From positions 1 through 60,986 of the forward strand of contig CAZHUO010000004.1 in the NCBI GenBank assembly GCA_964535715.1: DNA of 60,986 nucleotides, written 5' to 3'. Source of the DNA: an uncultured Gammaproteobacteria bacterium (GTDB lineage: Bacteria; Patescibacteriota; Patescibacteriia; Buchananbacterales; UBA6539). The notes beneath the pieces were generated by a model. That model was not told the DNA's origin. It searched no databases and saw only the letters and a list, made by a program, of their open reading frames with translations. A program made the position numbers and the translations under genes. Shown here one piece after another: positions 21,555 to 32,606 of this stretch (the first letter of the stretch is position 1; each line of letters begins with the position of its first letter).

Positions 21555-21971
21555 TCATTTTTCGACGGGAAATGTCGAGATAAGCCATTTTTGTCCAGAT
21601 CTTTTATCCTCCTTTATCTGCACAAAAAATAAATCTTTATCTTTGGTTACACCAGCAAATCGATGAAAAATTTCTGAACTCTTATTGGGGTTTTCTTTAG
21701 ATACCGGTTCATATCGTGATTTTTGAATAAGCTCAATGGCACAAGGAAAATATTTAACGCGTCTTGTTTTATCAGCTAAACTTAATTTTTGATGCAAATG
21801 GTGCCAATATAAATCTAAAAATATTTTATCTTTATTAAAATAGGCTGATCTAACATAAGGCTTTCTTTTTGTTTTGATTTTAATTAATTTATAAAATACA
21901 AATGCTTTTTTATAAGATTCTGACCATTTTGTTCCGGCAACCTTACTTGTATTAGTTTGATATATCTTCAT
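21555..21971 (-). CDS. hypothetical protein co-transcribed with the recombinase
   Basis: 138-aa ORF starting 5 nt after the recombinase stop. No motif recognised. Confidence 0.6.
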   Translation of the reverse strand: MKIYQTNTSKVAGTKWSESYKKAFVFYKLIKIKTKRKPYVRSAYFNKDKIFLDLYWHHLHQKLSLADKTRRVKYFPCAIELIQKSRYEPVSKENPNKSSEIFHRFAGVTKDKDLFFVQIKEDKRSGQKWLISTFPVEK

Positions 21972-21975
21972 AATT

Positions 21976-22851
21976 CTACAATGGCGACTTAATCTGACTT
22001 AAAAACTTATTGGAAACTCTGGTATAAATCTGAGTAGTCGTCAGACTTTTATGGCCAAGCAAAGTCTGGATATAACGAATGTCTACCCCGTCTTCAAGCA
22101 GATGGGTGGCAAAGCTATGTCGCAGGCTATGGCAAGTTGCTGATTTTCTAATTTCGGCATTGGCCAAGGCTTGTTTGAAAATTTTTTCAACCGACCTTGC
22201 AGAAAGGTACAAATTATTATAACCGGAAAAAATGTATTGCCCAAATTCTTTTTGGCAAATGAAATTTTGCAGATCAGAGACAAGTCTTTCCGAAAATATC
22301 GTCTGTCTGTCTTTTCTGCCCTTCCCCTGCCTCACCCATAATATTTTATTTTCCAAATCAAAATCCTTGACTTTCAGCTTAACGACTTCAGATACTCTTA
22401 AGCCGGCAGAATACATTAAAGCCAAAATTAATTTGTGCTTTTTATTATTTACCACATCAAGGAGTTTTCCTATTTCAGCTTTAGACAAAACCACAGGCAG
22501 CTTTTTTTCGCCCTTTGGCAGGCGGAAACTATAATAAAACCGCCTTTTTTTAACCTGGCGGTAATAAAATTTTATGGCATTAAAAGCCAAGCGGGAAGTT
22601 GAAGCAGAAACCTTCCTTTTTTCCAACAAATACCACAGATAATCCTTAATATCTGAGGCAGTAATTGAGGTCGGATCTTTTTGACAGTACCTGATTAAAT
22701 CGGTATTATAAAATAAGTAGGCCTGAACGGTTTTTGGGCTAAAATTACGAATTTCCAGTTCTTTTTTTAGGGATCCCCGCACAAAAACACTATCGAATTT
22801 AATGTGTTCGGGTTTTTCCGCACTTTTTGTATGGGGTAAATCAAAAAACAT
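21976..22851 (-). CDS. tyrosine recombinase, IntI/Xer-like, without the IntI-specific insertion
   Basis: Catalytic set is present: AGLRVSE (R), GKGRKDR (K), HSLRHSFATH (HxxR), LLGH, QIYTRV (Y). The N-terminal EKRKVSASTSRLAFNAIKFYY and LPVVLS resemble IntI1 (recalled from memory). Confidence 0.9.
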   Translation of the reverse strand: MFFDLPHTKSAEKPEHIKFDSVFVRGSLKKELEIRNFSPKTVQAYLFYNTDLIRYCQKDPTSITASDIKDYLWYLLEKRKVSASTSRLAFNAIKFYYRQVKKRRFYYSFRLPKGEKKLPVVLSKAEIGKLLDVVNNKKHKLILALMYSAGLRVSEVVKLKVKDFDLENKILWVRQGKGRKDRQTIFSERLVSDLQNFICQKEFGQYIFSGYNNLYLSARSVEKIFKQALANAEIRKSATCHSLRHSFATHLLEDGVDIRYIQTLLGHKSLTTTQIYTRVSNKFLSQIKSPL

Positions 22852-22901
22852 AGCGTTGTTCGGTTAATAATTAGAGATATAACCTAGTTATATGCGCTAT
22901 G

Positions 22902-22931
22902 TTGATAATCAAATATTAGCTAATTTATATA
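22902..22931 (+). promoter_or_regulatory. candidate outward (Pc-like) promoter facing the cassette array
   Basis: TTGATA, 18 nt spacer, TATATA. Confidence 0.3.
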
Positions 22932-22941
22932 TAAAAGTCAA

Positions 22942-22963
22942 CAACTTCGCCTAAAAGAAGTTG
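22942..22963 (+). other. attI-like junction
   Basis: caacttc-gcctaaaa-gaaGTTG. The GTT at 22960-22962 begins the first cassette's end-complementarity. Confidence 0.5.
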
Positions 22964-23033
22964 TACGAAATAATGAAAAATTCTTTTTGCCCTATCGGGC
23001 AAAATAATCGGGCTAATTTTAAATTTCTCTTTT

Positions 23034-24032
23034 ATGTATAATCCAGAAAAAAATATTCCATTTGAAAAATCTTCGGCTAGTGCTTCAACGGAAGAAATTT
23101 CTAAATCTTTTGAAAATGAAGAATCGGAACAAAATGATACATCGGAAGCTCAAAGTCAACCTATGCTCGAAAAAAATAAATACAGCCCCGAAGCCAGACA
23201 AGAACAAATTACAGAGCAAGCAACAATGATTCGCAAATGGGCAACAGAACAAGGACTTCAAGAAGGTAAGGACTTTTTAATAATCGAGAATATTAAAGAT
23301 GTTATTGGCAAAGATGAAGAAGTTGTACCGCATGAAACTAAAGCGTTTTATATGGCTATTCACGAAAATCAATACCGAAAATTTCGTGATTATTTTATAT
23401 CAAGATACAACGATGAAATGAAAGCAAAAGATTCAAAAAATGAAGTTCGTTTGGATTATAGTTGGGGTGGACGTTTCCTGGTCGGCTGGGCAGGAGTTCC
23501 TTGTGATACTGTTGCAGCTTCTGATATAGAAAATATAACAGTCCCTACTCATCATCAAGAGTTTAAACGTTTCTTTAAAAGTAAGGCAGGATTTGATTTT
23601 CCAACAGCAGAAACGCTAAATCCGATACTAAGGGAAATGTCAGACAAAGGTTTGGCATTATACGAAACTGCGCTAACCAAATTAAATGAATTAAAAGAAT
23701 CAGAAACTCTTCCTGACGATGGATATGGCTTAATCGATAGCGTTGTTCATGCTATTGAACTACTTAAAAAGGCTCAAAAAGGAAATGCGGTTACAGAACT
23801 CCCCGAAGAGATTCGTGGCACAATGCCAATAGAAACGCGCACTTATGCAGATCTGACATACAACGCAGAAGATATTGCCAACTTTGATCGCGTAATAAAA
23901 ATAACAGGAATAAAAATCCCTACTGAAGCAAGAATTGATAAGATATTTGATCAATTCAATTTTGATAGAAACCAAATGGAACAAATATGTAAAGATTTTT
24001 CTGATTATTTGATGGTAAAAAGAGAAATTTAA
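23034..24032 (+). CDS. cassette 1: hypothetical protein (332 aa)
   Basis: ORF bracketed by about 60-nt inverted repeats at 22961-23020 and 24031-24094. Confidence 0.6.
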   Translation: MYNPEKNIPFEKSSASASTEEISKSFENEESEQNDTSEAQSQPMLEKNKYSPEARQEQITEQATMIRKWATEQGLQEGKDFLIIENIKDVIGKDEEVVPHETKAFYMAIHENQYRKFRDYFISRYNDEMKAKDSKNEVRLDYSWGGRFLVGWAGVPCDTVAASDIENITVPTHHQEFKRFFKSKAGFDFPTAETLNPILREMSDKGLALYETALTKLNELKESETLPDDGYGLIDSVVHAIELLKKAQKGNAVTELPEEIRGTMPIETRTYADLTYNAEDIANFDRVIKITGIKIPTEARIDKIFDQFNFDRNQMEQICKDFSDYLMVKREI

Positions 24033-24090
24033 AATTAGCCCGATATATAATTCGCCTATCGGCGAAATAAGAATTTTTCATTACATCGTA

Positions 24091-31073: not shown

Positions 31074-31169
31074 TAACACGGCATATCTGGTTACGGCTTT
31101 TATACAAAAGCCTCCACCCATATTTGCCTCCGCTACGCTACGGCAAACATCAGATATGCCAAAACGTTA
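31074..31169 (+). other. attC-like site 2
   Basis: TAAC...aaaacGTTA. It matches site 1 at 93 of 96 positions. Confidence 0.7.
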
Positions 31170-31242
31170 GTTGCAATTTTTGAGTCGGCCTACTACACGA
31201 ATTAACAAACTTTATAAACATTCAATAACTGATAATTATATT

Positions 31243-31725
31243 ATGAAAAAATTTCTTAAGAACCCTCTGGTCAAGAACATTTTATCGGCATTAGCCGTGG
31301 CCATTTTCGGCTTTATACTGTTAATTCTTACATTTCTCTTTGATGCCATTTTCCAAAGTTTAGTAGATGGTATCATTAAACTTTTTACGCCAGTTGATAT
31401 CAATATGACCTGGTATTGGTTTCCGCCAATAAAACACGCTTCATTTATTGTCATCATTAGCCTAATTTCATGGCTTGTTTTCAGATCAAAACTAAAAGTG
31501 CTTTACAAAGCGATTTATATGACTGTGCCCGTTGCTACTGTTTTAGTGACTGTAGGAATGTTTTTGTATCGCTGGCCGATAGTTGTTTATTCTGTTGGTA
31601 GTTTACTTTGTATTGGCACTTTATACTATTTCTATCGCACCAAACAGCCATGGCTTTATTATTATACTGTGGTTTTAGTAGGGTTTACCTTGGCAATTTT
31701 TACTCTATTGGGTGGAGAAATCTAG
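31243..31725 (+). CDS. cassette 3: multi-TM membrane protein
   Basis: Start moved to ATG 31243, because the track start is a TTG inside the cassette-end repeat. About 4 hydrophobic helices. Confidence 0.6.
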   Translation: MKKFLKNPLVKNILSALAVAIFGFILLILTFLFDAIFQSLVDGIIKLFTPVDINMTWYWFPPIKHASFIVIISLISWLVFRSKLKVLYKAIYMTVPVATVLVTVGMFLYRWPIVVYSVGSLLCIGTLYYFYRTKQPWLYYYTVVLVGFTLAIFTLLGGEI

Positions 31726-31849
31726 TACTTATTTTTTCAAACGCAATAACCTAAATTCTTATTGATTAACGGCCGACTCAAAAACTTTGATTTTTTGCCT
31801 TCGGCATCGTTGCACTAAAAATCAACCACTCCAAGTATTCGTGGGCAAC

Positions 31850-31942
31850 TAACAGGCATTAACCGACTTCGCTCGGTTGCACCTCACTCCGTCCAAATTT
31901 GCTCCGCTACGCTCCACAAACTTCGGTTAATGCCATACGTTA
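31850..31942 (+). other. attC-like site 3
   Basis: TAAC-a-ggcattaaccga ... tcggttaatgcc-atac-GTTA, 93 nt. Confidence 0.65.
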
Positions 31943-31983
31943 TGTGAAATTTTTCTAAGGCGAGCTTCTAAATAACAACGATT

Positions 31984-32397
31984 ATGAAACTTTGTAGTGC
32001 ATGTCTATTGGGTTTAAAGTGCCGTTACGATGGCAAAAGTAAGCCCCATGAAAAAGTTATAAATTTGGCCACCAAGGAAACTTTGATTCCCGTCTGTCCT
32101 GAACAGTTGGGTGGCTTATCTACTCCGCGAAAACCTGCTGAGCAAAAAAATGGTCGAGTTATAACTGAGGATGGCGATGATATTACGATAAATTTTGAAA
32201 ATGGCGCGAAGCAGGTTTTAGAATTGGCCAAATTATACAATATAAAAAGCGCTATCCTCAAACAGCGAAGTCCTTCTTGCGGATGTGGCCAAATTTATGA
32301 CGGAACTTTTTCAGGGGCTATTATTGAAGGTGATGGTATCACTACAAAGTTTCTTAAAGAAAATGGTATCGAAGTGCTAACAGAGGATGATCTATAA
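31984..32397 (+). CDS. cassette 4: DUF523-family protein
   Basis: N-terminal CSACLLGLKCRYDG, characteristic of DUF523 (family assigned from memory). Confidence 0.7.
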   Translation: MKLCSACLLGLKCRYDGKSKPHEKVINLATKETLIPVCPEQLGGLSTPRKPAEQKNGRVITEDGDDITINFENGAKQVLELAKLYNIKSAILKQRSPSCGCGQIYDGTFSGAIIEGDGITTKFLKENGIEVLTEDDL

Positions 32398-32426
32398 TCG
32401 ACGGCTCGCTTTAGAAAAACATCACA

Positions 32427-32606
32427 TAACAAAGAATATCCGGCTCAAAAATTTTTCACTAATATATTTTTAATGTAAGAAAAATTTTCTCGACCCAAAT
32501 CCCGCGCGGTGTGAAATTAAGCCATTTGCCACTTAAAAAGTTTGGGAATAGAATAAGTTTTACGCTCTTAATATGGGCGCGGGACTTCGGATATTCTTAA
32601 ACGTTA
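32427..32606 (+). other. attC-like site 4 (long, 180 nt)
   Basis: TAAC-a-aagaatatccg ... cggatattctt-aaac-GTTA, with inner pairing cccgcgc/gcgcggg. Confidence 0.6.

Follow-up and report, generated by a model that had tools for sequence, protein, structure and literature searches.

In sedentary chromosomal integrons such as the Vibrio superintegron, a recombinase gene (intI) is read away from an array of units that lie on one strand, and an insertion site (attI) adjoins the recombinase gene. A unit consists of a gene or operon with an imperfect palindrome (attC) behind it; the palindrome has AAC...GTT cores, and crossover is between the G and the TT (G|TT). Canonical integron integrases need an IntI-specific domain for recombination at attC, and this domain reads the extrahelical bases of attC (PMC4792948, PMC9668308). 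How single-strand recombination at attC evolved from the double-strand recombination of Xer-type enzymes is an open question (PMC4792948). Here we analyze 60,986 nucleotides of DNA (hereafter, the window) from a Buchananbacteria-like genome of the Patescibacteria, in the candidate phyla radiation (CPR); we base this assignment on how the closest homologues are named (Buchananbacteria and Patescibacteria) and on synteny. Between positions 21,555 and 32,606, the window encodes a tyrosine recombinase that is read away from four gene units, each of which ends in an attC-like palindrome. We think that this locus is very probably a chromosomal integron-like platform for gene capture. The array works like an integron, but it fails one defining feature, as the recombinase does not have the IntI-specific domain, and it differs from integrons in the geometry of its sites and in its attI.

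A note made from the sequence of the window (the original prediction) had already described a recombinase gene that diverges from a string of plus-strand units, and had listed the contents of these units as an orphan gene, a Type I restriction-modification (R-M) operon, a membrane protein, and a DUF523 protein. Pfam and PADLOC confirm the recombinase domains and the gene content. The recombinase, the units (cassettes), and their sites are:

21976 to 22851, minus strand: tyrosine recombinase of 291 amino acids (Pfam PF13495, Phage_int_SAM_4, and PF00589, Phage_integrase)
22961 to 24183, plus strand: cassette 1, with a gene for a 332-amino-acid orphan protein (23034-24032) and site 1; its head, GTTGTACGA, is reverse-complementary to the sequence that precedes the AAC of site 1
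24083 to 24194, plus strand: attC-like site 1 (AAC at 24092-24094, G|TT at 24183-24185), with a perfect inner stem of 11-13 bp and two sub-hairpins in the loop
24184 to 31166, plus strand: cassette 2, with a Type I R-M operon (Pfam and PADLOC) and site 2; its head, GTTATATGA..TACATGTTTTCCTTT, complements its tail
24326 to 26728, plus strand: hsdR, in cassette 2
26734 to 28164, plus strand: hsdM, in cassette 2
28161 to 29396, plus strand: hsdS, in cassette 2
29399 to 30871, plus strand: gene for a PDC-M36A-like protein of 490 amino acids (PADLOC and Pfam), in cassette 2
31066 to 31177, plus strand: attC-like site 2
31167 to 31939, plus strand: cassette 3, with a gene for a membrane protein of 160 amino acids (about 31243-31725) and site 3 (31842-31950); its head, GTTAGTTGC, complements its tail
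31940 to 32603, plus strand: cassette 4, with a gene for a PF04463 (formerly DUF523) protein (31984-32397, Pfam E = 9e-46) and site 4 (32419-32614); its head is GTTATGTGA and its head/tail repeat is 27 nt long
32604 to 32614, plus strand: TTAGAAGAAAC, an R-arm-like sequence after the last site that fits the R-box consensus TTRNNNGAAA

The 332-amino-acid protein has no match in Pfam, NCBIfam, PADLOC, or PHROGs. All four palindromes begin with YAAC and end with ACGTTA, with crossover at ACG|TTA, and by our recount sites 1 and 2 are identical at 93 of 96 positions, as the original prediction had stated. The predicted positions of the sites are right, too, but the sites had been drawn too short: the conserved R-box flanks lengthen them to the extents listed above. 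We searched the whole window for AAC and GTT on either side of a perfectly paired stem of at least 9 nt, with 0-6 nt between the stem and GTT. Just these four palindromes in the 61-kb window have the site geometry, and they lie on one strand, beside the divergently-read recombinase gene. (The search also returned the pairs 2909-3050 and 31988-32351, neither of which has the spacers of 1 and 4-5 nt, and a relaxed search of the window gave nothing further that was credible, only AT-rich chance pairs.) A tRNA scan of the window and a search against Rfam at the gathering threshold gave no matches, so the locus is neither an island targeted to a tRNA gene nor a known RNA. The base composition of the region is native, with no sign of a foreign island; sedentary integrons also have native base composition, and they also carry defence genes and orphans.

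Two features had escaped the original prediction: the insertion site (22944-22971), which we will return to, and a complementarity between the two ends of each unit. In all four units, the sequence that follows the previous G|TT begins with at least 9 bases that are reverse-complementary to those right upstream of the AAC in that unit's own site. Past 9 bp there is a conserved 2-nt mismatch (AA in the head, CA in the tail), and beyond the mismatch the complementarity continues for a further 15-65 nt in units 1, 2, and 4, while in unit 3 it is displaced by an insertion of about 56 nt. The chance that six extra bases would be complementary in all four units is about 1e-14. Furthermore, sites 1 and 2 differ at three positions, and one of these is the R'' base that pairs with the unit's own head (C-AAC/GTT-G in one and T-AAC/GTT-A in the other). 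This pairing of heads and tails is as would be expected if each unit was once a circle that was closed at G|TT. We also noticed GC-rich hairpins in the head and tail arms of cassettes 1 and 2 (22989-23000, 24053-24064, 24210-24223, and 31036-31049). Their loops read TATC on the top strand in both arms, which breaks the symmetry of the inverted repeats and points to a function on one strand, perhaps as a terminator or a protein-binding site.

The original prediction had named a test beforehand: related genomes should differ by the presence or absence of units at the ACG|TTA junctions. An identical recombinase protein is encoded on seven other contigs. Contigs L003, L005, and L006 are the same as the window, and L001, L002, and L004 have another first gene (a cassette with an RrnaAD methyltransferase). 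L001 (13 kb, from SRR34875126) has a 100%-identical recombinase and is 99.9% identical to positions 19911-22971 of the window and 98% identical to positions 31145-34346. Between these two regions, the 332-amino-acid and Type I R-M units are replaced by units that encode an RrnaAD methyltransferase; a 590-amino-acid N6-methyltransferase with a 461-amino-acid protein; an HNH protein; and an 81-amino-acid protein (with, in addition, a 173-amino-acid one). The left breakpoint is exactly at GAAG|TT, 109 nt upstream of the ATG of the recombinase gene: both sequences share ...CGCCTAAAAGAAGTT and then continue with GTAC in the window and AGAC in L001. On the right, identity resumes exactly at ACG|TTAGTTGC, behind two different palindromes. 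Cassette 3 is thus common to both strains and is preceded by a different unit in each. Every unit in L001 obeys the head/tail rule. In other words, cassettes have been replaced at G|TT, as in an integron, and the insertion site adjoins the recombinase gene; together with the head/tail rule and the conservation of attI, this bears out the predicted layout of intI, attI, and cassettes with attC.

Two side observations concern the cassettes of L001. First, an attC-like site at L001 3190-3880 (minus strand; about 9074-9763 of its reverse complement, L001rc) has L arms, CGGCGTATCTG and CAGATACGCC, that are about 640 nt apart, with the 173-amino-acid open reading frame (ORF) in the loop. This may be a recombination site that contains a gene, or else a fused or decayed cassette. 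Second, a module of about 80 nt lies just upstream of an attC-like site both in the window (30931-31013) and on the minus strand of L001 (L001rc 7611-7687); the two copies are 83% identical and belong to different R-M cassettes (Type I in the window, the methyltransferase with the 461-amino-acid protein in L001). A related copy lies right before it in the window, at about 30880-30925.

The strain comparison also bears on whether the locus could be a phase-variable switch, with the recombinase flipping the 332-amino-acid gene, or shuffling hsdS, between long inverted repeats. This idea is suggested by the repeats of 27-29 nt (up to about 75 nt, with indels) around the 332-amino-acid gene, near a tyrosine recombinase and a Type I R-M operon. 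However, these repeats are the head and tail of cassette 1: similar repeats surround every unit and abut the AAC and GTT cores. There is a single hsdS and there are no silent hsdS halves. Also, none of the seven contigs has an inverted allele, and the alleles differ instead by the replacement of units. An invertible segment or shufflon is therefore highly improbable, and we rejected it.

Around the start of the recombinase gene and the first crossover point, we identified these features:

22877 to 22943, strand not assigned: putative control region between the recombinase gene and attI (from conservation in 5 relatives)
22877 to 22893, strand not assigned: perfect 7-3-7 palindrome, ATATAAC-CTA-GTTATAT, with two R-box-like halves, 26-42 nt upstream of the recombinase start and kept in the related loci L102, L104, and L108
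22902, plus strand: -35-like TTGATA in the control region, directed at the cassettes; conserved as TTGAYA upstream of attI
22941 to 22913, minus strand: candidate promoter of the recombinase gene, TTGACT-17-TAATAT, from a promoter scan (GTCAAC corresponds to TTGACT on the minus strand)
22681 to 22709, plus strand: candidate promoter TTGACA-17-TATTAT (11/12 positions) within the recombinase gene, directed at the cassettes
22944 to 22971, plus strand: attI-like site with a dif-like 11-6-11 core and crossover between G22960 and T22961 (from the divergence of the alleles and from conservation)
22944 to 22954, plus strand: left arm of the dif-like core, ACTTCGCCTAA
22955 to 22960, plus strand: central region of the dif-like core, AAGAAG
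22961 to 22971, plus strand: right arm of the dif-like core, TTGTACGAAAT

The stretch between the recombinase gene and attI has a mean identity of 76% over 5 relatives (whose recombinases are 65-76% identical), and conservation among these relatives ends 4 nt past G|TT. The window and 15 related CPR loci (16/16) each have a single motif of the form AACAnTTCG[C/G]ATA[A/T]AAnnGA|GTTRNNNGAAAT, 77-136 nt upstream of the ATG of the recombinase gene. Across these 16 loci, the core has the form 11-6/7-11, and its arms are inverted repeats that match each other at 6-9 of 11 positions. The crossover that we observed is at the border of the central region and the right arm. Each arriving cassette supplies its own right arm, and in this way the attI core is restored after every insertion. 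The palindrome at 22877-22893 may be an operator or an accessory binding site. The promoter-like TTGACA-17-TATTAT sits where the Pc promoter sits in class 1 integrons and might drive the expression of the cassettes, although the total of promoter-like sequences in the region is not above chance. The end of attI resembles that of attI1 (TTCGCCTAAAAGAAG|TT here and ...TCGCCCTAAAACAAAG|TTA in attI1); the match is real but too short, and we rejected it as evidence of homology.

At the other end of the array, TTAGAAGAAAC may be the original right half of attI, marking the array's end. The empty attI would then have been ...CGCCTAAAAGAAG|TTAGAAGAAAC. A search downstream of 32606 for a fifth cassette end (for TTCTTCTAAC, and with relaxed site searches) gave nothing convincing. 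We did notice an AT-rich inverted repeat of 41 nt (34492-34588, 80% complementary) behind a gene for a 118-amino-acid protein. Its last bases, ATTCTAAC (34581), complement the head after site 4 (GTTAGAAG) at 7 of 8 positions and have no L stem or GTT partner. The repeat could be what is left of a terminal site that has decayed; the genes at 32684-34488 would then be a fifth, fixed cassette.

To see if similar arrays exist elsewhere, we ran a site finder on 1.2 Mb of loci that encode relatives of the recombinase. The finder looked for AAC and GTT on either side of two 11-nt arms that pair with each other at 10 or 11 positions, with spacers of 1 nt after AAC and 3-5 nt before GTT. This gave 68 sites, as compared to 2-11 in shuffled sequence. 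Most of the sites (43/68) are upstream of the recombinase gene and on the opposite strand, as in the window, and the loci with this layout belong to CPR lineages, among them Peregrinibacteria (L082, with 6 sites), Uhrbacteria L049, L034, L106, and L021. Another 20 are downstream of the recombinase gene and on the same strand, in Desulfitobacterium (L077), Spirochaetota (L019 and L074), and Flavobacterium (L086); sedentary integrons also occur with an "inverted integrase" layout. Just 5 sites lie elsewhere, so 63 of the 68 are in one of two fixed layouts. A scan of metagenomes added 14 loci, few of which were informative. In the close relatives, one side of the recombinase gene is syntenic (GNAT, ThrRS, MiaB, and GatB), and the other side is variable and encodes R-M systems, methyltransferases, HicAB, a Shedu-like protein, and small orphans. 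Taken over all of the arrays, the R-M systems, methyltransferases, HNH and HicA/B proteins, and small orphans resemble the cargo of sedentary integrons. We conclude from these comparisons that the system belongs to a family that is spread over CPR and other phyla and is not peculiar to this genome.

Relatives outside of CPR include those from Desulfitobacterium sp. Sab5 (L077, NZ_CP172056, whose sites are just 67-71 nt long), Flavobacterium cellulosilyticum (L086), Spirochaetota (L019 and L074), and Thermodesulfobacterium (L008). These non-CPR recombinases have an extra N-terminal stretch of about 90 amino acids with the motif ...G(R/G)xW...W..P, and their genes are followed, on the same strand, by arrays of this type of site. 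There are also archaeal DPANN-type relatives that are 44-56% identical to the recombinase, namely L015, L035 (Undinarchaeales), L043 (Altiarchaeales), and L058 (an uncultured archaeon); our site finder, the only search that was run on these four loci, gave no sites there.

We also looked at the head/tail rule across the family. For 32 pairs of adjacent sites, we compared the 6 nt 5' of AAC in one site to the 6 nt after GTT in the previous site: these are perfectly complementary for 17 of the 32 pairs and complementary at 5 or more positions for 24 of the 32. For random pairs, the corresponding proportions are 2.4% and 12%, and a site's own two flanks pair at about the random level. Because the flanks pair between adjacent units and not within a site, cassettes can be told apart from autonomous palindromic repeats. 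This is relevant because the original prediction had considered that the palindromes might be generic repeats of the REP (repetitive extragenic palindrome) or MITE (miniature inverted-repeat transposable element) type, scattered over the genome and unlinked to the recombinase. The sites are intergenic imperfect palindromes, and sites 1 and 2 are nearly identical. But no such palindromes are found elsewhere in the window, 63 of the 68 sites in the family have a fixed layout beside the recombinase gene, the 5' flank of each site pairs with the head of its own unit and not with its own 3' flank, and the strains differ by whole gene-plus-site units. In view of these observations, REP/MITE elements are effectively refuted and have scarcely any probability left.

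The 68 sites have consensus ends of aCATC-NNN-Y-AAC-A on the 5' side and AAAC-G|TT-R-NNN-GAAAT on the 3' side. Like attC, they have AAC and GTT cores, paired R and L boxes, a variable loop, and stem sequences that differ between sites, but their spacers and L stems differ from those of canonical attC. As in sedentary integrons, structure is kept and sequence is kept in part (the cores, the R-box flanks, and a weak consensus in the inner stem). When the bottom strand of a site is folded, it forms an R stem of about 10 bp, which is often extended; a 3-nt bulge (TTT or TAT); a perfect L stem of 11-13 bp; and a variable loop. In 52 of the 68 sites, AAC is followed by A and GTT is preceded by C. 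In a folded top strand these two bases are mismatched (A·C), whereas in a folded bottom strand their complements form a G·T pair. Another conserved C and A, at -8/+8, show the same asymmetry. The conservation of top-strand A·C positions as bottom-strand G·T pairs suggests that the bottom strand is the folded substrate for recombination; it seems to be favoured here, as it is in sedentary integrons.

The original prediction had proposed that the sites be folded on the bottom strand, and in predictions of single-stranded folding, the bottom strand was more stable by about 3-7 kcal/mol in every site that we tested, both in the form found in the array and in the form reconstituted as a circle (bottom versus top: -83 vs. 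-77, -82.5 vs. -75, -51 vs. -45, and, for the reconstituted site 4, -46.6 vs. -43.9 kcal/mol). Site 1 alone gave -22.2 kcal/mol for the bottom strand and -19.3 for the top strand. For sites 1 and 2, the z-scores for folding were -4.1 to -4.7 for the bottom strand and -4.55 and -2.99 for the top strand; they were weaker for site 3 (-1.91 for the bottom strand and -1.25 for the top strand). Given these z-scores, the complementarity of heads and tails, and the excess of sites over shuffled sequence, chance is excluded as an explanation for the sites.

We then asked whether the recombinase is an integron integrase. In NCBIfam, it passes the cut-off of NF040815 (recomb_XerA_Arch; site-specific tyrosine recombinase/integron integrase) with 234 bits against a cut-off of 220, which places it in the Xer family. 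It scores 222 bits on the integron integrase model TIGR02249, split over two stretches and below the cut-off of 265, and 184 bits on the models for XerC and XerD. As a control, IntI1 scores 508 bits on TIGR02249, and NF040815 is its second-ranking family. The top match of our recombinase in PDB is the Vibrio integron integrase VchIntIA (2a3v; 159 bits, E = 2e-45), followed by XerA (140 bits; the structures 4a8e and 5hxy are at E = 1e-39 to 1e-40) and XerD (85 bits). The alignment to 2a3v breaks where residues 200-218 of the recombinase (about 19 amino acids) stand opposite residues 183-244 of IntI (62 amino acids), and in a multiple alignment with IntI1 of R100, an insert of about 42 amino acids is present in IntI1 only. 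The insert is also absent from all 10 of the array-linked relatives that we aligned, and all 7 of the array-linked relatives that were scored on NCBIfam miss the TIGR02249 cut-off. These results agree with the original prediction, which had noted that the IntI hallmark is missing. By these alignments and scores, the recombinase appears to be the nearest non-IntI relative of the integron integrases, is also related to archaeal XerA, and does not have the hallmark domain of IntI.

Could this nevertheless be a canonical integron whose bona fide IntI merely looks divergent? The layout, the AAC and GTT cores, the G|TT crossover, the match to VchIntIA, and the attI1-like end of attI would all fit. 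But the defining domain was tested for and is missing, and so this is not a canonical integron. Besides the IntI insert and the TIGR02249 score, the geometry of the sites is different, and the L stem does not have the extrahelical bases that are present in the aadA1 attC. We view canonical membership as refuted, with only a very slight probability left. Other differences from sedentary integrons are that attI is a symmetric dif-like core; that the complementarity of the R stem is 9-10 bp, often with 15-100 nt more, instead of 7 bp; and that one cassette is a 7-kb operon of four genes. Because both the domain and the extrahelical bases that it reads are missing, the system is internally consistent, and it suggests a different way of choosing the strand, via the bulge and the G·T pairs.

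Similarity to Xer and dif raises another possibility: that this is a housekeeping system of the 'Cand' Xer subgroup, which resolves chromosome dimers at a chromosomal dif that has suffered insertions of the IMEX type (integrative mobile elements exploiting Xer, such as CTX-phi), with no dedicated capture system. The XerA-type model NF040815 is the top NCBIfam match, and the insertion site has the architecture of dif. In single-recombinase Xer systems (XerS and XerH), dif lies beside the recombinase gene, as does the insertion site here. The arms of attI in the window match the XerC and XerD arms of E. coli dif at 7 of 11 positions each, where about 4 of 11 are expected at random and 7 or more have a probability of about 0.03; over the 16 loci, the arms match at 4-10 of 11 positions, with at least 6 matches in 14 of the 16 loci for each arm. 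Smyshlyaev et al. also treated tyrosine recombinases from candidate phyla as Xer-related (PMC8138268). However, the units carry no genes for replication, phage functions, or transfer. They are single genes or operons, promoter-proximal and inserted serially on one strand, each with one structured site, and they are exchanged between strains. A chromosomal dif should be at the terminus, yet at least one related locus (L104) is about 6 kb from dnaA-dnaN and resembles an origin, and in the window both the genes and the skew diverge at the site, which is also origin-like. Furthermore, homologues with arrays are found in Desulfitobacterium, Flavobacterium, and Spirochaetota, whose phyla normally have XerC and XerD. 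A housekeeping Xer/dif system is therefore unlikely, although less so than the other alternatives that we considered, and it overlaps with the integron-like reading, since one recombinase might have both functions.

Two other kinds of system share parts of this arrangement. The pdif modules of Acinetobacter plasmids are also discrete gene modules with inverted Xer-type sites that are shuffled between replicons. In contrast to the locus described here, their XerC/D sites are 28 bp long and alternate in orientation, and they have no structured palindromes of 90-180 nt, no dedicated recombinase alongside, and no attI. CALINs (clusters of attC sites lacking integron integrases) and the archaeal integrons of Ghaly et al. 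2022 (PMC9668308) include arrays of attC-type sites with no canonical IntI nearby; the reported archaeal IntIs carry the IntI domain (PMC9668308). Our array is different in that a specific and conserved non-canonical recombinase, and an attI, adjoin it. IntegronFinder would probably call it a CALIN, if its attC model detects the sites.

Putting these observations together, we propose the following mechanism. Four cassettes would have been inserted serially at a dif-like attI, each consisting of a gene or operon and then an attC-like imperfect palindrome. A cassette would be transiently circular, so that its first bases (TTRNNNGAAAT...) could pair with the bases 5' of AAC and complete the R stem. 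The bottom strand would then fold into a hairpin with the R stem, a 3-nt bulge that is closed by a G·T pair, the L stem, and the variable loop. A folded single strand is also the substrate when CTX-phi integrates its single-stranded attP. By analogy with integrons (PMC4792948), the recombinase would bind the R and L stems of the hairpin. Cleavage would be at 5'-AA|C-3' on the bottom strand, which corresponds to G|TT on the top strand; exchange with attI would insert the cassette, and exchange with another site would excise it. As in integrons, the junction is probably resolved by replication.

Several points weigh against this interpretation. The recombinase does not have the IntI domain, so a mechanism involving single-stranded DNA is not guaranteed. 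The R and L boxes are separated by 1 and 4-5 nt, instead of 5 and 6 nt in the aadA1 attC (and about 5 and 5-6 nt in sedentary integrons generally). Classical cassettes have nothing like the long inverted repeats at the heads and tails. Scans of the region for promoters and terminators gave nothing above chance. Our site finder was ad hoc, and it is circular as regards the L stem, but not as regards the tests of the flanks, the orientation, or the G·T pairs. Just two alleles were recovered: when we looked up two cassette proteins in other contexts, we found only these two, with no third arrangement and no empty site. Finally, the support comes from the comparison of sequences and alleles, in which no circles or excision products were seen.

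Some other features of the window have a looser connection to the array, or none. An ORF of 138 amino acids begins 4 nt past the stop codon of the recombinase gene and is only putatively part of the system:

21555 to 21971, minus strand: 138-amino-acid ORF (ORF call), with no family match in Pfam, NCBIfam, PADLOC, or PHROGs

In related loci, this slot holds a PDDEXK_3 nuclease (L102) or a GIY-YIG nuclease (L104, L107, and L108), or else it is empty (L103 and L106). Since its content differs among relatives, the downstream side of the recombinase gene is variable, too. A palindromic element of about 80 nt with TACGAATA-type repeats occurs at 18016-18094 and at 59038-59124; the two copies are inverted, 41 kb apart, and about 89% identical in their core, and they are apparently unrelated to the cassette sites. 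Short tandem motifs of the AGCTTTTAGC type are found between genes, in both orientations, at 8255-8284, 16681-16712, and 45800-45831.

In the literature that we could search, we found no description of attC sites or integrons in CPR or Patescibacteria, or of integron platforms of the Xer type; the search was incomplete, and this is an absence of evidence only. The IntegronFinder 2.0 preprint does not mention CPR or Patescibacteria. A 2026 study reported that most "integron-type" recombinases from metagenomes have no detectable attC, and it offered novel attC sites as a possible reason.

We consider the chances to be evenly balanced that these arrays represent an undescribed lineage of integron-like platforms, widespread in CPR and found in other phyla too. 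In such a lineage, the integrase would be an intermediate between Xer and IntI that does not have the IntI domain, attI would still be dif-like, and the hairpins would form without extrahelical bases. Where CPR genomes are reduced, this enzyme might double as the sole Xer. Either such a lineage would be a living "missing link" from Xer/dif to integrons, or cassette capture would have been invented independently. The evolution of single-strand recombination could then be tested with defined parts: a protein of 291 amino acids, a 28-bp attI, and four attC-like sites. Because standard integron detection requires the IntI domain, the whole class would be systematically missed in metagenomes, and it could help to explain the attC arrays that have been reported without integrases. 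CPR bacteria have tiny genomes and are thought to be poor in mobile elements. If our interpretation is correct, then they have a dedicated route to defence genes and other accessory genes.

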